This document shows positions 17,875 through 25,491 of a stretch of DNA of 64,000 nt, in pieces. The translations under genes and the position numbers were made by a program. Location of the stretch: the sequence record PZ338878.1; one strand, 5' to 3'. The notes under the pieces were generated by a model. The model was not told where the DNA came from, made no database searches, and worked only from the letters and a program-made list of their open reading frames with translations. Positions within the stretch are counted from its first letter, which is position 1. Each line of letters opens with the position of its first letter. This stretch comes from a phage.

Positions 17875-18216
17875 ATGGAGCTAACAGAAGTATGGGATAT
17901 CGCTAAAGAGGCGATTATCCCTCTTATTGGTGTAATCTGGGTGGTCTTCAAACAGAAGATAGATGATATAGCAAGTGATTTGGATAAAATGGAAGACAAA
18001 TACCGTGAACTAGAAAAGAAGTTGGTGTTTGTTGAATCCACTTATGCTACCAAAGCAGAACTTGCTCAAATGCTTAACCAGATCAACTCTACATTAATGG
18101 CAAATAATACTGCCTTAGAACAGAAGATTGAAAAAATAATGGATTTAAAAAATGCTCCTGTTCAATTAATGCTAGAGGAGATTACGAAGCGCACACAAAG
18201 TAAGGACAAAAATTAA
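17875..18216 (+). CDS. hypothetical coiled-coil protein
   Basis: 113 aa; N-terminal hydrophobic segment then charged helix; ATGA-type coupling to next gene. Confidence 0.4.
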   Translation: MELTEVWDIAKEAIIPLIGVIWVVFKQKIDDIASDLDKMEDKYRELEKKLVFVESTYATKAELAQMLNQINSTLMANNTALEQKIEKIMDLKNAPVQLMLEEITKRTQSKDKN

Positions 18217-20630
18217 TGGCGAATTTTCCAACATATCCTGCTACGACACTAGAACAAGGTGTTGATCTGGTTATATTCTCGTCTAACCAGATGCATGATG
18301 TTATTAACGGGGATGCTACAGCAACTGTAGAAACCGAAACAGGTTTAATACCTACACTGCGTAAAGCACTTGTTGATAACTTCTTCTTTAAGAGTCCTGT
18401 TGCTTGGTCAGCAGGATCAACTGAAACTGTATTTAACCAGTTACGTTATTTTGAAAACGGTATCTTGAGTGGGTACTACTATGCTCCATCTGCCACTACT
18501 GCGAACCCTGTACCTATGCAGGGTACACCTGTAGGAGACAGTAACTGGACTCTGTATGCTCTTAAAACTGAACAGTTAGCTTCAGATGTGTATCCTTGGT
18601 ATTTTAAAGGTGCTACAGGGTATGAGACAGAAATCAGTCCTCCTTATATCTTTGATAATGCTATTGTCACCATTAACGGTGTAATTCAGATTCAGGGTGA
18701 AGCATTTACTATCAAAGATAGTAAAATTATTCTGGCAGAACCATTAGGTTTAGATCCGTCTACTGGTCTACCTAACAAATTGTTTGCTTTTATTGGTAAA
18801 ACAACAGCCTCTACTTCTTACGTAGAGAAAAACCTTTTGTCATCTACCACTGGTGCAGCAATGGTTGGTCTTCCATCTGGAGGCAATCTGTTACAAGCTC
18901 AATACTTTGTAACGCCTGAGCAGTTTGGTGCAATTGGTGATGGAGTTACCGATGATACTCAAGCAATTCTAAAAACCATTACTTTCGCTAACACGAATAA
19001 CATTCAAGTACGTGCAGATAAGAATTATAGATTCACAAGCTCAATTGCTATGTCTGGTATTCGTTGGTATGGTGGTACATTCACTGGTAACGGTGGAACA
19101 ATGATTTCTACTGTGTCCTGTTGGATTGAAAACGTTCGCTTTGAAAAATGTTATGTTAAGATGTTAGGTGGTGATTGCCGATTCTATCGTAATATCTTCT
19201 CCAACGCAACATCTACAGCAGCATTTTTAATGCAAGCAATGACAAGTGAAGGTACGTTGGACTTCAGTTACAACGAAATGTATGGTTGTAAATATGCGAT
19301 CCTGCAACAAGGTACTGGAGAAGTAATGACCTATGGGCGTTACTCTAACAACTACATTCACGATATCAAAGGTGATGCTATTGAACTTAACGTAGTTCAA
19401 AAACACTACACTGAAGGTTTGATCATCGAGAATAACCACATTGCTAACGTAGATGCTTCTGGACAAGGGGCAAACTGGGGTATTGGTATTGGTGTAGCAG
19501 GTAGTGGCCCATATGGTGTTGATGCTCCTGATTCACAATATGTACGTAACTTCAGTATCGTTGGAAATAGGGTTTACAATTGCCGTCAATGTTTACACGT
19601 TGAAATGGGTAAAAACTTCACTATACGTGACAACGAAGTTTATCCTAACACAGCAGTTTCAACAGGTACAGGTTTAACTACTTGTGGTGTTGCATTATAC
19701 GGATGCCAAGATTTTGAAGTTGATGGTTTAACTGGTTATCTGCTTAATGATCCGTCTGTTTCAACACGCATGGTCTTTATTGACTGGGGTGTTAACAGTG
19801 GAAGATATGCGGGGCCACCAATTAACTTTACAATTAAGAATTTGGATATTCCAGAATCTTCAATTGAAATTGCAACGGCTGGATCAGATGCCTGGGAAAA
19901 CTCTACAATTGTTAGTAACATCAATTGTAATGTTTTTAAATGGCGTGGATTACCATCTAGCTCTACCTTTAATAATATTCGTTGCCGTAGTATTGACTTT
20001 ATTGGTCAACACGGAAGCGGAGAAGGAAGTGGTGGCGGTTTCTATACTCGCAGCCAATTCACTTATATGAAGTGGGTAGGATGTACAGCACTTAGCGGAG
20101 ATGAAACAACAGTTTCTTTTGCTAAAATCTACACGGATCGTTGCGATCAGGTTGGAAATAACTTTGGTGTTCCAACTGCTGTTGATGGTACAGGTCATCG
20201 TGGGCCAGTCTTAACCACTATTTCTGAACAATATTTTACAGATTATGATGAATTCCCAGGTGGGCGTGACTTCCCTACTGGAACAGTTATTCATTGTGCA
20301 AGCGGTAAAAAACACGTTGTTACAGTAGGTGGTGCTTTCTTTAGTAATAATGAGAAAATAAAAGCAACTGTTACAGGTCAAACCTATCTACAGTCTAATG
20401 CTTTAAACTGGGCTAGTAATGGCTACGCTAAAGCGGCAGGTACTAAGATTGTTATTCCAGGTGCAGGAGCAAATGGTGGCGATCTTGTGACAACTATAGC
20501 ACGTGCTACGTATGTGACAAATAGTTTGTACACAATAGATATTGCAGATCCAATTGTAACACCTACAGCAGAGAATACACAAATTAAAGCTCTGAACCCT
20601 GTTACTTTTGTTACTGTCAATAATGCTTAA
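18216..20630 (+). CDS. tailspike protein with pectate-lyase-like beta-helix domain (depolymerase 2)
   Basis: FGAIGDGVTDDTQAILKTI motif; 804 aa; distinct sequence from the 11347 tailspike outside the motif. Confidence 0.7.
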   Translation: MANFPTYPATTLEQGVDLVIFSSNQMHDVINGDATATVETETGLIPTLRKALVDNFFFKSPVAWSAGSTETVFNQLRYFENGILSGYYYAPSATTANPVPMQGTPVGDSNWTLYALKTEQLASDVYPWYFKGATGYETEISPPYIFDNAIVTINGVIQIQGEAFTIKDSKIILAEPLGLDPSTGLPNKLFAFIGKTTASTSYVEKNLLSSTTGAAMVGLPSGGNLLQAQYFVTPEQFGAIGDGVTDDTQAILKTITFANTNNIQVRADKNYRFTSSIAMSGIRWYGGTFTGNGGTMISTVSCWIENVRFEKCYVKMLGGDCRFYRNIFSNATSTAAFLMQAMTSEGTLDFSYNEMYGCKYAILQQGTGEVMTYGRYSNNYIHDIKGDAIELNVVQKHYTEGLIIENNHIANVDASGQGANWGIGIGVAGSGPYGVDAPDSQYVRNFSIVGNRVYNCRQCLHVEMGKNFTIRDNEVYPNTAVSTGTGLTTCGVALYGCQDFEVDGLTGYLLNDPSVSTRMVFIDWGVNSGRYAGPPINFTIKNLDIPESSIEIATAGSDAWENSTIVSNINCNVFKWRGLPSSSTFNNIRCRSIDFIGQHGSGEGSGGGFYTRSQFTYMKWVGCTALSGDETTVSFAKIYTDRCDQVGNNFGVPTAVDGTGHRGPVLTTISEQYFTDYDEFPGGRDFPTGTVIHCASGKKHVVTVGGAFFSNNEKIKATVTGQTYLQSNALNWASNGYAKAAGTKIVIPGAGANGGDLVTTIARATYVTNSLYTIDIADPIVTPTAENTQIKALNPVTFVTVNNA

Positions 20631-20633
20631 TTA

Positions 20634-20656
20634 AAAGGGGCGAAAGCCCCTTTATA
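20634..20656 (+). terminator. rho-independent terminator
   Basis: GGGGC-GAAA-GCCCC hairpin followed by TTTAT. Confidence 0.6.
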
Positions 20657-20670
20657 AAAGGAGTAGTAAA

Positions 20671-22632
20671 GTGATTTTAACACGTCCAAATAGTGCCATT
20701 GCAGACATGGTAGAGTCTCGCTATAGAAAGCGTAGAAGTTTTGCAAGTGGTTTTACCTTAAGAGATGCTCGTGAAGCATTGCTCTTTGAAGCTGACGGTA
20801 ACTACTATCAGTGGAAAGGTTCTCTACCTAAAGTTGTACCTGCTAACTCTACTCCTACATCTACTGGAGGGATTTCAGATACAGCTTGGAAAAATGTGGG
20901 TAATGCAGATGACATTGCTCAAATAGAATCAGAATTAGATGCTATTGAAGCTGAAATTGAAGATCTTAGAGAATCCATCCCAGAAGCTGGTAAATCAGCT
21001 TACCAGATTGCCGTAGACAATGGTTTCCAAGGTACTGAGACACAGTGGTTGGCTTCTTTAAAAGGTGATCCAGGTGCTCCATTAAAGCTATTAGGGACAC
21101 TATCTAATACCAACCAATTACCTACAAGTGGAAACAATGCAGGGGATGCATGGATTGTAGGCGAGAATATGTATGCTTGGGATGGTACTGCTTGGAGAAA
21201 AGTAAACTCACAGGGGCCAGAAGGTAAATCTGCTTATGAAGTATGGCTTGCAGCAGGAAATGAAGGTACAGAACTAGATTATCTTGCTTCAATTAAAGGT
21301 GATAAAGGGGAGCCTGGCCCAGAGGGGCCACAAGGTGTGCCAGGTAATAATGCTAATGGTTTTGATTACCAAGGCGCAGCTAATTCCGTTTCAGATCTTC
21401 CTTCTGCATCTCATGGAAACACATCTCAAGCATGGAGTGTTGGTACATATCTATACGTGTCAAACGGTGTAGAATGGATCAATATGGGTGCTATAGTGGG
21501 GCCAAAAGGAGATAAAGGCGACAAAGGTGATAAGGGTAACACTGGTGATTCAGCTTATCAAGTCTGGTTAAATGCTGGTAACGTTGGTACTATTGACGAA
21601 TATATTGCCTCTCTGAAAGGAGAAAAAGGTGATAAGGGAGACAAGGGTGATCAAGGTGCACAGGGTATACAAGGCTTGACGGGGCCAACTGGTGCAGGGT
21701 TGACCATTATTGACATTCTGACTAACACTTCTGAACTACCACAAACTGGAGAAGAGGGTGATGGTTATCTGATCAATAATGAACTTTGGGTCTGGTTGCA
21801 AGGAGCCACAGAGTGGACAAATGTTGGTCGTTTAGCTGGTACTCCAATCACTGCAAAAGGACACGTTGCGTCTGCAAGTGCACTTCCTCCTACAGCTAAT
21901 TACGGTGATGCTTATCTGACGGAAGATACAGGTCATCTTTACATTTACACCTATGATGAACAAACTCAAACTGCTGAATATGTAGATATGGGTAGTTTGA
22001 AAGGTGATAAGGGTGAAAAAGGTGACGCTGGTACTAACGGTACAGACGGTGCAACTTGGATTGTTAAAACAACAGATCCAATCTCTAGTGATGGTAAACA
22101 AGGTGATTATGCCTTTAATATCTCCACGGGCGAGGTGTTCTTAAAAACATCTGCAACTGTCTGGACTTCTCAAGGTACACTACCTAGTATCACAGATGCA
22201 CCTAGTGACGGTAAGACTTATGCTCGTAAAGATGGGGCATGGGAAGAACTCACTAATTCTGTAGATGGTCAAGATATAGTTCCAACAAAAGTAACAACTA
22301 ATTTTATAGAGGTTACAGCATATACCAACAATTCTGTTACAGGGGACTGGACACCTCCAGGAACACATAACATGAATGTGTTGAATCTTACTGGTAACGC
22401 TACTATAAAAGCATGGCCTGGTGTCGAAGATAGTACAAAACCTAAACCATTCTCTGCAATAGTTTATCTTATCCAAGATGCCACTGGAGGTCGTACTGTT
22501 ACTTTAGATCCATCTTACAAAGTAATTGGTTCCAGTGATATTAATACAGATCCTAACGGAGTAACAATACTACAACTAACATATTGTGGTGTTGGCGATT
22601 ACGTGGATGCTATTGTTGCTAAACGCACATAA
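20671..22632 (+). CDS. collagen-like tail fibre protein
   Basis: Gly-X-Y triplet runs (GPKGDKGDKGDKGNTGD; GEKGDKGDKGDQGAQGIQGLTGPTG) and a reiterated module SAY(Q/E)(I/V)W..AGN.GT..EY(L/I)AS(L/I)KG. Confidence 0.7.
   Translation: MILTRPNSAIADMVESRYRKRRSFASGFTLRDAREALLFEADGNYYQWKGSLPKVVPANSTPTSTGGISDTAWKNVGNADDIAQIESELDAIEAEIEDLRESIPEAGKSAYQIAVDNGFQGTETQWLASLKGDPGAPLKLLGTLSNTNQLPTSGNNAGDAWIVGENMYAWDGTAWRKVNSQGPEGKSAYEVWLAAGNEGTELDYLASIKGDKGEPGPEGPQGVPGNNANGFDYQGAANSVSDLPSASHGNTSQAWSVGTYLYVSNGVEWINMGAIVGPKGDKGDKGDKGNTGDSAYQVWLNAGNVGTIDEYIASLKGEKGDKGDKGDQGAQGIQGLTGPTGAGLTIIDILTNTSELPQTGEEGDGYLINNELWVWLQGATEWTNVGRLAGTPITAKGHVASASALPPTANYGDAYLTEDTGHLYIYTYDEQTQTAEYVDMGSLKGDKGEKGDAGTNGTDGATWIVKTTDPISSDGKQGDYAFNISTGEVFLKTSATVWTSQGTLPSITDAPSDGKTYARKDGAWEELTNSVDGQDIVPTKVTTNFIEVTAYTNNSVTGDWTPPGTHNMNVLNLTGNATIKAWPGVEDSTKPKPFSAIVYLIQDATGGRTVTLDPSYKVIGSSDINTDPNGVTILQLTYCGVGDYVDAIVAKRT
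21290..21700 (+). repeat. collagen-like G-X-Y coding repeat blocks
   Basis: Three blocks of GGN-GAT/AAA-AAR type triplet codons at about 21299-21346, 21498-21548 and 21617-21697. Confidence 0.7.
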
Positions 22633-22635
22633 TCA

Positions 22636-22660
22636 AAGCCCCTTCGGGGGCTTATTATTT
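22636..22660 (+). terminator. rho-independent terminator
   Basis: AAGCCCC-TTCG-GGGGCTT hairpin followed by ATTATTT. Confidence 0.6.
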
Positions 22661-22671
22661 AAGGAGATTAA

Positions 22672-25491
22672 ATGTATCCTATTCCTTTATTTATGTCAAC
22701 AACATCAGCTTCAGTAGTAACAGCTACATCTATAACCACTTCCTCTATTGGTATTGCAATAGTTGGTAGTAAAAAGCAACTGACATACACAGTTTCACCG
22801 GAAGATGGTGCGTTATTTGATATAGCTTTTTCATCTTCAGATAATACCAAAATGGTTATAGATAATAATGGTATGATGGAGTTTGTTGCCGAAGGTGGTT
22901 TTGATGCAATAATGACAGCTAAAAATAATTTAGGTGCTGTCTTAACTGATCAATCTGGTGGCTATGCTTCAGAATTAAGTGTGTACACTGAAAGTCTGTC
23001 TGCTATGGATGCAGGAACTACTCAACAATTGGTTGCTACAATCAGTCCAGAAGGTGCTAAAGACCTTCCAGACATGGTAATTACGTACACCACAACAGAT
23101 CCAGAAGTAGCTACTGTAAGTCCTACAGGATTAATAACTGCTCTTAAAGATGGCAGTTGCCGTATAGGTTGCACTGCAACTTATCAAGGAACAGTGGTGG
23201 CCTCTGATAGTTCTTATTTAGGTGTTAATGCTGTTCCTGTTATTTCTAATGTAACAGCCGTGGCAAACAGCTATGGAGACATTCGTGTTGCTTGGGATGT
23301 AGCTGATCCGCTAGATGGTGATACTTATACTGTAGAAGTATTAGATTTAAGTAATAACAGTGTCCAGTGGACTACAACAACCACGAATACTTACGCTTAC
23401 TTTGATATCTCTGACTCTATTCCTCTTTATGGGTTTGCTCCAACATACCTTAAAATTAGCGTTAAGAGCACCAAAGCAGCACCCGTTATCTTTAATAACT
23501 CAATAGCTACAGATGATTCATTCATTAAAGAAGTTATTGTCTTTGCTGGACAAGATAACGTAAATGCACACTTTACAGAACTATCTGGTGCAAATAAAGC
23601 AGCAATGAGTAGCACAACAGCCCGTAATGCATATGCTACGCAACGTGGTTTAGCAAATGCTGAAGTTCTCCCGTTAAATACAGCTTCTGGATCATCAGCA
23701 GCAGATAAATATGCTGACGATAAAGCTGGAACAGGTACACCAGACAACTACTGGTATGATCTGGATAACACAGCAGATGGGCCATGCTTAACTAACTTTA
23801 TCACTAAAGTCACACCTTATGCAAGTAAGGTTAAAGCGATTATTTGGGGACAAGGTGAAAATGATGCTGTATCAGCATCTTCAACTGTTGCAGGTAGATA
23901 CAGTAACACTACACGTTACCATGATGCTACGATAGCTATCTTTGATAAGATGCGTACAATAGTTCCTGCTTCTCAAGCAAAAATTGTTTGGCAGATCCTA
24001 GGACGTTCTTATTTATATGGTGTAGAAGTTAATGGTGTGGATTGGCAGAAATACAGAAATGTACAAAGAACCATCTCTACAGCACGTGACGATGTTATCA
24101 TTGGTTCTTGGGTGGATGGTGCTGAACGCTACAGTGGTTATGTTTATGAAGAAGGTATTGCTGGTCGTATCCATTATATTTCTTCTGTATACCAAACAGC
24201 AGCTACAAAACTTGCTAAATCAGCAGCAGACGGTACAGACCTAACATCAACGTCACCTGTTTGGGTTGATATGGCTGTTCCAACTGGAGCAACAGCTATT
24301 TCCCAATCTAATCAAGATATAATTTTAGCATGGGATGCTCAAGGTTATAGTAAACACTACTTCCGTAATATTAACGTCTTAACAGCATCTGTATTAACTG
24401 AACAAACCCTTAATACGAACAGTTATACGTTTACCTATGCAGATCAAGTAGAACAATATGGTTTTGCAGCAGGTACTACGGTATTTGATGTTGCATATTA
24501 TGACGAAGCAAATGATGTGTTATCTCCTTTAGTACGTTTTAATGTTAGCGTTACAGCAGGAAAAGTAGAAGATAAACCTGTCGTGATGGATTATGATTTG
24601 ACACAAGAAACTCTTCCATCAGATGTTAAGGTTAATGGTGGGAACTCTTTTGCTCGTGCTTCTGGAGATAAACTTGTAGCCACTAACACCTTGGTTGCTC
24701 CGTTGGAGTATGTTGGTACTACCCCTGTAGGTAGACGTGTAACAGCTAACACAGCTACACAAATTTTTGTCAACAACGCCTTAACAAGCGCAAGCCCGTG
24801 GGTAAAGACCAACTTAACTGTTGCAGCTTCATCTGATAACTCTCCGGCTGGAACTACTGCTAATGTATTCAAATTAACTCCGACTACAACCTCTGGTAGT
24901 CATATCTTAACTGCAACATATACTAACGCGTACAACATATCTGCCGGACGTAACTGGTCTGCCTCTGTTTTCTTGAAAGCGAACGGGATTACTAAGGCCA
25001 AACTAAGATTAAAAGCAGGAACTGAAGTTAATGAGGGTACTTTTGATTTAGCAGCAGGTACATTCGCAGGAAGTGAAGCTAATATTATATCTATGGGCAA
25101 CGGTTGGTATCGTGCTATTCTGCATAAAACAGGGATAGCCAAACAGTCCTCCATAAGTTTTGAAATAATTGCCTTGGATGCAACTGGTGCGGAGATTTTC
25201 GCTGGAGATGGTACTAGTAACCTTGCAGTTTGGTTGCCACAGCTTGAAGGTGCTTCTACAGGAGACACATCAAAAGCTGGATCGCCTTATGTCTGCACAT
25301 ATCCTGGAAATTTAGGAGGAGTATCCTTCACTATACCAAGGAACGGACATACTGGTGTGGATGTTTACTATTCCAACGGAGACGTTGTTCGTGACGTATT
25401 CTCTGGTACGGCATCTACTTGGACAATAAACTACTCCAGCTTGTACGATTGGGGATCAGTCTTTATTACAGGTTTGAAATATTACGACTAA
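22672..25491 (+). CDS. fibre/decoration protein with Ig-like region and SASA/SGNH-esterase-like domain
   Basis: 939 aa; central motifs VIVFAGQDNVNAHF and IWGQGENDA resemble sialate O-acetylesterase-type blocks; Thr/Ser-rich Ig-like N-terminal part; lectin-like C-terminus. Confidence 0.45.
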   Translation: MYPIPLFMSTTSASVVTATSITTSSIGIAIVGSKKQLTYTVSPEDGALFDIAFSSSDNTKMVIDNNGMMEFVAEGGFDAIMTAKNNLGAVLTDQSGGYASELSVYTESLSAMDAGTTQQLVATISPEGAKDLPDMVITYTTTDPEVATVSPTGLITALKDGSCRIGCTATYQGTVVASDSSYLGVNAVPVISNVTAVANSYGDIRVAWDVADPLDGDTYTVEVLDLSNNSVQWTTTTTNTYAYFDISDSIPLYGFAPTYLKISVKSTKAAPVIFNNSIATDDSFIKEVIVFAGQDNVNAHFTELSGANKAAMSSTTARNAYATQRGLANAEVLPLNTASGSSAADKYADDKAGTGTPDNYWYDLDNTADGPCLTNFITKVTPYASKVKAIIWGQGENDAVSASSTVAGRYSNTTRYHDATIAIFDKMRTIVPASQAKIVWQILGRSYLYGVEVNGVDWQKYRNVQRTISTARDDVIIGSWVDGAERYSGYVYEEGIAGRIHYISSVYQTAATKLAKSAADGTDLTSTSPVWVDMAVPTGATAISQSNQDIILAWDAQGYSKHYFRNINVLTASVLTEQTLNTNSYTFTYADQVEQYGFAAGTTVFDVAYYDEANDVLSPLVRFNVSVTAGKVEDKPVVMDYDLTQETLPSDVKVNGGNSFARASGDKLVATNTLVAPLEYVGTTPVGRRVTANTATQIFVNNALTSASPWVKTNLTVAASSDNSPAGTTANVFKLTPTTTSGSHILTATYTNAYNISAGRNWSASVFLKANGITKAKLRLKAGTEVNEGTFDLAAGTFAGSEANIISMGNGWYRAILHKTGIAKQSSISFEIIALDATGAEIFAGDGTSNLAVWLPQLEGASTGDTSKAGSPYVCTYPGNLGGVSFTIPRNGHTGVDVYYSNGDVVRDVFSGTASTWTINYSSLYDWGSVFITGLKYYD

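Follow-up and report, generated by a model that had tools for sequence, protein, structure and literature searches.

The open reading frame (ORF) at 20671..22632 on the + strand of the window, i.e., the whole 64,000-nt stretch of phage DNA analyzed, started with GTG and encoded a protein of 653 aa orthologous to gp151 of coliphage phi92. The original prediction had placed this ORF exactly, and all the motifs it quoted were present. A ribosome-binding site (RBS; AGGAG, 20659..20663, +) was found 7 nt 5' of the GTG, and the same RBS was annotated in phi92. A GC-rich hairpin seen by sequence inspection between the upstream tailspike gene and the fiber ORF (AAAGGGGCGAAAGCCCCTTT, 20634..20653, +) had no T-run and was not called in a terminator scan; a second one (AAGCCCCTTCGGGGGCTT, 22636..22653, +) lay 3' of the fiber stop codon, immediately 5' of the RBS of the next gene. 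The gene was located inside the tail-fiber gene cluster, in a synteny shared with phi92, PD06 and phAPEC8, and was flanked by a colanidase tailspike gene directly upstream (ORF 18216-20630, 804 aa, equal in length to phi92 gp150) and by another tail protein gene. No paralog was obtained when the N-terminal, middle and C-terminal parts of the fiber were searched by tblastn against the whole 64-kb window, so a second fiber sharing the anchor or the modules was absent from these 64 kb.

Gene 151 of phi92 matched the ORF with 98.8% nucleotide identity over 100% of its length and 98% amino acid identity. Its product (YP_009012483, 'tail fiber protein') was alike in its 653 aa, upstream neighbors, RBS and GTG start; the gene itself showed no substantive difference, while the downstream gene differed (939 aa here vs the 203-aa gp152 in phi92). 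Matches of at least 95% over the full length (about 97-99%) were found in 56 Justusliebigvirus records, annotated as tail fiber, and PHROG 15437 ('tail fiber protein') aligned with residues 1-653 on profile positions 1-656 of 656 (E 0, 1364 bits). Orthologs from BASEL phages (Justusliebigvirus and Phapecoctavirus) were annotated as 'lateral tail fiber protein with type I collagen domain'. Judged by its sequence, the ORF encodes almost exactly the collagen-like side tail fiber already known as gp151 of phi92. The module anatomy presented here was not found in the literature searched: searches on Justusliebigvirus with collagen and on collagen-like tail fibers with a foldon gave nothing specific, and the BASEL, RBPseg and HIDEN-SEQ papers did not mention the protein.

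The N-terminal part harbored an anchor domain, Tail_spike_N (PF18668; aa 11-77, 20701..20901, +), well recognized by Pfam (E 4e-21) with 75.2 bits, above the gathering score of 25. This anchor matched CBA120 TSP1, TSP3 and TSP4 and G7C gp63.1 in the PDB sequence search, in agreement with Foldseek, and homologous anchors in CBA120 TSP1/TSP3/TSP4 and G7C gp63.1/gp66 shared 35-45% identity over about 65-85 residues. Beyond the anchor the CBA120 and G7C tailspikes are beta-helix enzymes, whereas a collagen-like, non-enzymatic fiber was found here. A coiled coil was predicted next (aa 80-103, 20908..20979, +), modeled as a helix at 80-102; in the heptad read from the sequence, Ile and Leu were spaced 3-4-3-4 (I82, I85, L89, I92, I96, L99, I103).

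Four G-X-Y blocks were counted, one more than originally predicted, with 6 + 6 + 9 + 6 = 27 triplets plus a two-triplet GDPGAP. Blocks 1 (aa 210-227, 21298..21351, +), 2 (aa 277-294, 21499..21552, +; GPKGDKGDKGDKGNTGDS) and 4 (aa 445-462, 22003..22056, +) encompassed 6 triplets each and block 3 (aa 317-343, 21619..21699, +) encompassed 9. Block 3 was the stretch matched by Pfam Collagen (PF01391), which reached its gathering score (33.1 bits, cut-off 27.2), and the reading of the protein as a collagen-like fiber agreed with this match, with Tail_spike_N, with PHROG 15437 and with the tail-fiber cluster. The NCBIfam models Scl1, Scl2 and Lcl matched the collagen region weakly, with 44, 29 and 28 bits against cut-offs of 400, 325 and 500, respectively. 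All blocks had pLDDT values below 50 in the monomer model, as is expected from one chain of a triple helix. Short, charge-rich G-X-Y helices free of hydroxyproline, which need flanking non-collagen trimerization domains, occur in streptococcal Scl1/Scl2, Bacillus BclA, the EPcl proteins of E. coli prophages and phage HylP. The fiber would share this helix type with these bacterial and prophage proteins; unlike them, in which one long collagen domain carries one or two flanking domains, it interleaved four short collagen blocks with nine small modules.

Three 'SAY...KG' linkers were present, S1 (aa 107-132, 20989..21066, +; 54.6 bits), S2 (aa 185-210, 21223..21300, +) and S3 (aa 292-317, 21544..21621, +). 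Each had two short helices in the model and was predicted as a helix-turn-helix (in S1, helices at 110-116 and 123-129). The beta module A, with the signature LP..GDAY..LYVW..W.NVG, was found in four clear copies of 44-53 aa, shorter than the roughly 60 aa first proposed: A1 (aa 138-181, 21082..21213, +; four strands, pLDDT 84-88), A2 (aa 231-276, 21361..21498, +) and A3 (aa 344-389, 21700..21837, +), both supported by sequence profile and model, and A4 (aa 391-443, 21841..21999, +), which had a longer hairpin. A4 was found by the profile of modules 1-3 with 15.6 bits, the best of 2000 decoys scoring 9.4. The supposed fifth copy, B (aa 461-504, 22051..22182, +; TWIV...GDYAFN...VFLKTS..W..G), was missed by the profile built from A1-A4, so that mutual recognition in sequence was limited to the four A copies. 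It was linked to A only when family profiles were compared with each other (hhalign P 9.6e-5, probability 58%, 30 columns in register) and by a four-strand arrangement like that of A in the AlphaFold model, where all A and B modules had four strands each (pLDDT 84-90). B is a separate conserved module type, only remotely related to A, and the five-fold repeat originally described thus held for four copies. The proposed alternation with SAY linkers was observed for modules 1-3, each preceded by one linker, but not for modules 4 and 5: modules 3 and 4 adjoined, 4 and 5 were parted by just one collagen block, and start-to-start spacing was irregular (93, 113, 47 and 70 aa).

Apart from the foldon-like motif, no Pfam match up to E 10 was obtained with the A module, the S linker or the knob as separate fragments, and Phage_fiber_2 (PF03406), sought for the SAY linkers, did not match the whole protein or isolated linker and module fragments up to E 10. 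The PDB sequence search with the A-module profile and the S1-A1-S2 segment gave no meaningful match. The A module has no solved structure, and the Pfam copy searched contained no model of it. Its profile found 2957 cluster representatives (about 3000 clusters at the 50% identity level), and single proteins carried as many as 15 A copies.

When the protein was aligned with itself by Smith-Waterman, with G-X-Y masked and the diagonal excluded, the top off-diagonal scores were 114 and 69, while among 100 residue shuffles the scores averaged 38.6 (sd 5.1) and never exceeded 61. Internal repeats beyond the G-X-Y triplets, as claimed from the first reading, were thereby borne out at the protein level; at the DNA level, no repeat other than the 9-nt GDK/GEK triplet runs was found in the gene. 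That the modules merely reflect chance or the composition of a Gly/Asp/Lys-rich sequence would fit the fifth copy escaping the profiles of the other four, and several lower-ranking self-alignments that scored inside the shuffle range. This reading has next to no probability against the two top scores, the recovery of A1-A4 by each other above decoys, and the column-by-column conservation of the modules in orthologs at 55-62% identity and their presence in 2957 clusters; for A1-A4 and S1-S3 it was refuted by shuffles, decoys and these clusters. The repeats within the protein, though real, are old and have diverged, so the fiber is of a type already known and ranks as an ordinary representative of the modular phage fibers, a very common family.

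Downstream of module B, a foldon-like hairpin (APSDGKTYARKDGAWEEL; aa 505-530, 22183..22260, +; hairpin at 517-526 in the model) scored 19.4 bits with Fibritin_C (PF07921) in the whole protein, below the cut-off of 21, and 23.0 bits, above it, in a 70-aa fragment. Fibritin foldon peptides from the PDB matched this motif at E 0.05-0.5, and 11 of 19 residues were identical to the T4 foldon core when counted by eye. It shared with the foldon of T4 fibritin (wac) the C-proximal beta-hairpin signature A-P-x-D-G-x-x-Y-x-R-K-D-G-x-W. In T4 fibritin, however, the shaft is a segmented coiled coil and the foldon forms the extreme C-terminus, whereas here the shaft was made of collagen and beta modules, and the motif (505-530 of 653) came after a beta module and was followed by a knob of about 120 aa. 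The foldon-like motif of this fiber was therefore found elsewhere than at an extreme C-terminus behind a coiled-coil shaft.

The C-terminal beta-sandwich knob (aa 549-653, 22315..22629, +; pLDDT 82-93), presumed to be the receptor-binding tip, had a single and modest PDB fold match, the trimeric capsid spike gp52 of Pseudomonas phage Pa223 (9ny6_C, E 3.7e-4, TM 0.46, 13% identity). It also matched 248 BFVD phage fiber models at E <= 1e-3, plus the C-terminus of PHROG 4549. Pa223 gp52 stands on the three-fold axes of the capsid and consists of an N-terminal capsid attachment, a triple beta-helix and a TNF-like knob. It has neither collagen nor SAY linkers, its N-terminal attachment belongs to another family than that of the fiber, and the full-length model superposed on it with an rmsd of 23 A and TM 0.14.

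The foldon-like motif and this sole fold match of the C-terminal part would both suit a capsid or neck decoration fiber comparable to T4 fibritin or the Pa223 spike, instead of a baseplate fiber. So would the phi92 cryo-EM study of 2026, in which an AlphaFold3 model of gp151 fitted no fiber density and gp151 was not placed in the tail-fiber density (PMC13450770). Such a location is nonetheless very improbable: the N-terminal anchor belongs to the family of CBA120 and G7C tailspikes that join branched tail complexes and is unrelated to the N-terminal segment by which Pa223 gp52 attaches, the gene lies within the tail-fiber cluster, and a knob of this fold tops many proteins annotated as tail fibers.

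Linkers, A modules, B modules and foldon-like motifs numbered 3, 4, 1 and 1, respectively, in every ortholog cluster at 58-99% identity, while G-X-Y triplets ranged from 27 to 37. Length differences in the alignment all fell within G-X-Y blocks and were multiples of 3 aa. Within the genus, the sole length polymorphism was one triplet, a 9-nt indel (AAAGGTGAG, GEK) in block 4 of PD06, ECGD1 and EC.P2. Block 4 was also where C-terminal swaps and insertions of relatives started; homology with Tr1, for instance, stopped at aa 445, the start of this block. Between phAPEC8 and anhysbys, which were otherwise alike (97-100% identical), 133 differences were counted, of which 113 were packed into 277 nt running from the boundary of S3 and collagen block 3 to just inside A4, which corresponds to one block-plus-module cassette. 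Whole cassettes are exchanged from phage to phage, and their boundaries coincide with collagen blocks. Among 120 homolog clusters of the wider family, numbers differed greatly, with 0-11 A modules, 0-19 linkers and 0-9 foldon-like motifs.

The original prediction took the modules as a substrate of intragenic recombination, in which unequal crossing-over would quickly alter the length or specificity of the fiber. Module numbers varying in the wider family, with up to 15 A modules per protein, are in line with this mechanism, as are the absence of B in P0014, the three tandem B modules of P0016, and an in-frame deletion of 486 nt in the EP57 ortholog that removed two collagen blocks and two A modules. 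The junction of this deletion was, however, without long homology, and with a genome record of just 130.7 kb it may be an assembly artefact. Nucleotide identity among copies was low (47-56% for A and B, 61-67% for S), no exact run shared by copies exceeded 9 nt, and the longest exact direct repeat in the gene (15 nt) lay within the triplet runs, which makes homologous unequal crossing-over within the gene unlikely. The module count was moreover the same throughout the 56 Justusliebigvirus records and the Phapecoctavirus orthologs, and a single triplet accounted for the within-genus length polymorphism. The predicted proneness to recombination and rapid variation was borne out in part: triplet numbers and cassettes varied, whereas module number was constant in these orthologs. 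The architecture is evolvable by module, slowly and mainly through exchange between genomes, and did not act as a hot intragenic repeat.

Taken together, the ORF most likely encodes a homotrimeric, segmented side tail fiber of a phi92-like myovirus (Justusliebigvirus), with a modular shaft built by ancient duplications and now varying by slippage and cassette exchange (probability about 0.8). A trimeric state is suggested by three independent indicators, the 3-4 heptad of Ile and Leu, the G-X-Y runs and the identities to the foldon core, the heptad and the foldon count being our own reading of the sequence. Tail_spike_N would dock the fiber onto the branched adsorption apparatus and be followed by the short Ile/Leu coiled coil. 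In the shaft, collagen triple helices of 6-9 triplets, rich in K-G-D/K-G-E, would alternate with SAY linkers and beta modules (four A, then B), before the foldon-like hairpin and the beta-sandwich knob that presumably touches the receptor. Beta modules, linkers and the foldon-like motif may act as trimerization and registration nodes, on which collagen segments too short for stability of their own would nucleate and be held together, and which would set fiber length and flexure points. The repeats would derive from an ancient duplication of building blocks whose DNA is now too diverged for mutual recombination. Present variation would come from slippage in the 9-nt triplet repeats on the one hand, and from exchange between phages, insertion or loss of whole cassettes with junctions at collagen blocks on the other hand.

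More tentatively, and with clearly less than even chances, the A and B modules, perhaps with the SAY linkers, could form a family of trimer 'registration nodes' that has been neither described nor structurally solved, and that would nucleate and clamp very short, hydroxyproline-free collagen helices. If so, they would be natural counterparts of engineered foldon-collagen chimeras, reusable in designed fibers. The fiber anatomy leaves the understanding of phage adsorption unchanged. Its value for annotation lies in residue-level limits for each building block of a fiber that was neither placed nor modeled in the phi92 cryo-EM work, and in flagging a very common small beta module that has no solved structure. 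It also maps where change is tolerated, namely in the number of G-X-Y triplets and at cassette boundaries in collagen blocks; these sites offer cut points for engineering chimeric fibers or host range in phi92-like therapeutic phages.

The aromatic residues of the A and B modules could alternatively make them lectin-like glycan binders, the shaft being multivalent for surface polysaccharide with an avidity tuned by copy number. Tyr and Trp positions were conserved in each module (GDAY, LYVW, W..VG), and phi92-like phages recognize several surface glycans (PMC8594841, PMC11984140), both of which speak for this role. We consider it very improbable, as the conserved aromatics lay on predicted strands, consistent with a hydrophobic core, the modules matched no carbohydrate-binding family by sequence or fold, and they always stood between obligate-trimer elements. 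A further point in favor of glycan binding along the shaft is that the knob was no more divergent than the shaft, with between-genera identities of 51-56% for the knob vs 41-72% for the A modules. No signature therefore singled out the knob as the specificity determinant, and a hypervariable receptor-binding tip was rejected, as divergence between genera was even along the protein.

The plus-strand ORF of the fibre gene (20671-22632) was confirmed, with a GTG start codon, an AGGAG ribosome-binding site 7 nt upstream and a product of 653 aa. By megablast, 57 phage records carried the gene, and in 56 of these the match spanned its full length with at least 95% identity. Gene 151 of Escherichia phage phi92, 98.8% identical, bears the label 'tail fiber protein'; in the BASEL phages the label is 'lateral tail fiber protein with type I collagen domain', and PHROG 15437 ('tail fiber protein') covered the protein end to end. 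In phi92, gene 151 follows the colanidase tailspike gp150 inside the tail-fibre cluster, and the upstream ORF in the window encoded 804 aa, as in phi92. The gene is thus not new: an almost identical copy has been annotated and published, and collagen-like fibres are a recognised type among phages; useful though modest additions are a residue-level module map, evidence for cassette exchange and a module of about 3000 clusters without solved structure.

All motifs quoted in the original prediction were found in the protein, which encompassed four G-X-Y blocks rather than three: blocks 1 (aa 210-227), 2 (aa 277-294) and 4 (aa 445-462) of six triplets each, and block 3 (aa 317-343) of nine, besides a two-triplet GDPGAP. 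Three 'SAY...KG' linkers (S1-S3) were located at aa 107-132, 185-210 and 292-317. When the protein was aligned to itself with G-X-Y runs masked and the diagonal excluded, the top score (114) paired linker and module 1 with linker and module 2, extending into linker 3, and the second (69) paired modules 1 and 3; 100 shuffles scored 38.6 on average (sd 5.1, maximum 61), and the other self-alignments (49 or less) fell within the shuffle range. With profiles made from orthologous copies, modules 1-3 retrieved module 4 at 15.6 bits (maximum of 2000 decoys, 9.4), and module 1 alone retrieved modules 2, 3 and 4 at 10.1, 17.1 and 7.5 bits, while the fifth copy was detected by no profile of modules 1-4, and its own profile detected none of these modules. 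A chance origin of the repeats was ruled out for both the four modules and S1-S3.

Since the profiles linked modules 1-4 and not the fifth copy, four clear copies were retained: A1 (aa 138-181), A2 (aa 231-276), A3 (aa 344-389) and A4 (aa 391-443), ranging from 44 to 53 aa with the consensus h.h.G.h.....LP.....GDAY.h...LYVW....W.NVG. Neither the A module nor the S linker had a model in the Pfam copy searched or a sequence match in the PDB. The fifth copy, B (aa 461-504, TWIV...GDYAFN...VFLKTS..W..G), is a module type distinct from A; relatives bearing B mostly had exactly one copy, after the last collagen block, and one had three in tandem. Family alignments of A and B kept 30 columns in register (GD.Y, hairpin, W...G), with an hhalign P-value of 9.6e-5 and a probability of 58% (controls: A vs S, P 0.18; B vs S, P 0.41), and both showed the same four-strand pattern in the monomer AlphaFold2 model (pLDDT 84-90). 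The five-fold module originally proposed therefore resolves into four clear copies and a remote relative. Module B is followed by an element, APSDGKTYARKDGAWEEL (aa 505-530), resembling the T4 fibritin foldon; Fibritin_C (cut-off 21 bits) scored 19.4 on the whole protein and 23.0 on a 70-aa fragment, and PDB foldon peptides matched at E 0.05-0.5.

At the N-terminus, a Tail_spike_N domain (residues 11-77; 75 bits, cut-off 25) was homologous to the anchor domains of CBA120 tailspikes and G7C gp63.1. Residues 80-102 formed one helix in the predicted model, with the 3-4-3-4 Ile/Leu spacing typical of coiled coils, and the S linkers each formed two short helices. Residues 549-653 were confidently predicted as a beta-sandwich knob (pLDDT 82-93). 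The only significant PDB match of the C-terminal model (aa 505-653) was the capsid spike of Pa223 (9ny6_C, E 3.7e-4, TM 0.46), which is homotrimeric and comprises a triple beta-helix and a knob termed TNF-like by its authors (bioRxiv 10.1101/2025.06.11.659172). A capsid or neck fibre is considered improbable. Among predicted phage proteins the same model had 248 matches (E <= 1e-3), many of which carry the name tail fibre or collagen repeat protein. Pfam PF26209 was carried by all full-length orthologs in the homolog clusters P0001-P0014 according to precomputed annotations, and the local Pfam copy gave no hit for it in the fibre protein, nor in the C-terminal fragment with the cut-off relaxed to E 10; PF26209 probably postdates that copy and probably covers the C-terminal knob.

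A homotrimeric bead-on-a-string side fibre is the best-supported reading of the protein. The anchor domain would be followed by the coiled coil, a shaft, the foldon-like hairpin and the distal knob, and short charge-rich collagen helices would alternate in the shaft with small helical and beta elements. Collagen helices of six to nine triplets without hydroxyproline require flanking trimerisation domains, as seen in collagen peptides and bacterial collagen-like proteins, and K-G-D and K-G-E triplets stabilise such helices. Because of this requirement, a role as registration nodes is inferred for the A, B and S elements and for the foldon-like motif. Lectin-like binding, as another role for the A and B modules, has a low probability.

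The repeats of the fibre gene are ancient duplications. Tandem Repeats Finder and a repeat finder displayed a 9-nt GDK/GEK periodicity and 19-27-nt stretches near 'SAY' and 'ASLKG' (70-84% identity), and no other DNA repeats in the gene. The longest exact direct repeat was 15 nt; A and B copies were 47-56% identical in nucleotides with exact runs of 9 nt at most, S linkers 61-67% identical with runs of 8 nt at most, and collagen blocks had common runs of up to 14 nt. With copies this diverged and exact runs this short, the gene is a poor substrate for homologous unequal crossing-over. The original prediction of recombination-prone repeats, in which the gene would change through its own copies as intragenic hot repeats, was given low probability.

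At present the gene changes rather by slippage of triplets and by the exchange of cassettes between phages, with junctions at the boundaries of collagen blocks. Fibre genes of Justusliebigvirus measured 1962 or 1971 nt, the longer form having an additional AAAGGTGAG unit in collagen block 4 that encodes a single G-E-K triplet; this unit was identical in the three 1971-nt genes aligned (PD06, ECGD1 and EC.P2). Phapecoctavirus orthologs (55-62% aa identity) were collinear with the fibre protein, and all their length differences lay within G-X-Y blocks, in multiples of three residues. Divergence between genera was spread over the entire protein, with S linkers most conserved and no hypervariability of the knob seen. 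An HMM census of modules in the 120 best homolog clusters displayed three S, four A, one B, one foldon-like motif and the same knob in all orthologs of 58%-99% identity, only the triplet count (27-37) being variable. Repeat number among relatives, the comparison originally suggested, was thus constant in these orthologs and differed widely across the 120 clusters (A 0-11, S 0-19, B 0-3, foldon-like 0-9, triplets 14-173); a profile of A1-A4 from the window matched 2957 of 1.84 billion cluster representatives, in which a single protein had as many as 15 copies.

The fibre genes of phAPEC8 and anhysbys (L003 4000-6024 vs L004 600-2624) showed 133 differences, of which 113 were concentrated in 277 nt (gene nt 957-1233, 42-70% identity), the remainder of the gene being 97-100% identical. 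This patch started exactly at the S3/collagen-3 boundary and stopped just within A4; collagen block 3 and module A3 were replaced as one cassette. Homology with Citrobacter phage Tr1 ended where collagen block 4 begins (aa 445), with a different C-terminal region beyond, and at this point other relatives had additional modules or B modules in tandem. One ortholog (P0014) was without B. In vB_EcoM_EP57 (L009 1500-3038), an in-frame 486-nt deletion removed two collagen blocks with A3 and A4, and long homology was not found at its junction; the deletion may be an assembly artefact, suspected from the unusually short genome record (130.7 kb, vs about 150 kb in relatives).

The variable locus is the downstream gene (22672-25491, plus strand) and not the collagen-like fibre. 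Its product is a tail protein of 939 aa that has Big_2 domains (E 7e-14) and weakly matched SASA/sialate-acetylesterase-like domains. Of 61 related phage records, only 27 had the gene in full length, and in phi92 its position is taken by gp152 (203 aa) and gp153. GC-rich hairpins without T-run, in a window of about 35-43% G+C, flanked the fibre gene on its 5' (AAAGGGGCGAAAGCCCCTTT, 20634-20653, plus strand) and 3' side (AAGCCCCTTCGGGGGCTT, 22636-22653, plus strand), each directly preceding the ribosome-binding site of the following gene; possible roles are in RNA stability or processing, or as weak terminators separating the tail-fibre genes. Cumulative GC skew over 1-64000 climbed to about 24-26 kb and steadily fell after, and the last plus-strand fibre gene ended at 25491, near this peak. 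Four GenBank records named 'Campylobacter phage' A150, A145, C3 and A110a (MG065639, MG065645, MG065656 and MG065689), with C. jejuni as stated host, had a fibre gene 99.2% identical to coliphage versions and genome sizes as in phi92-like phages; their host labels look doubtful.
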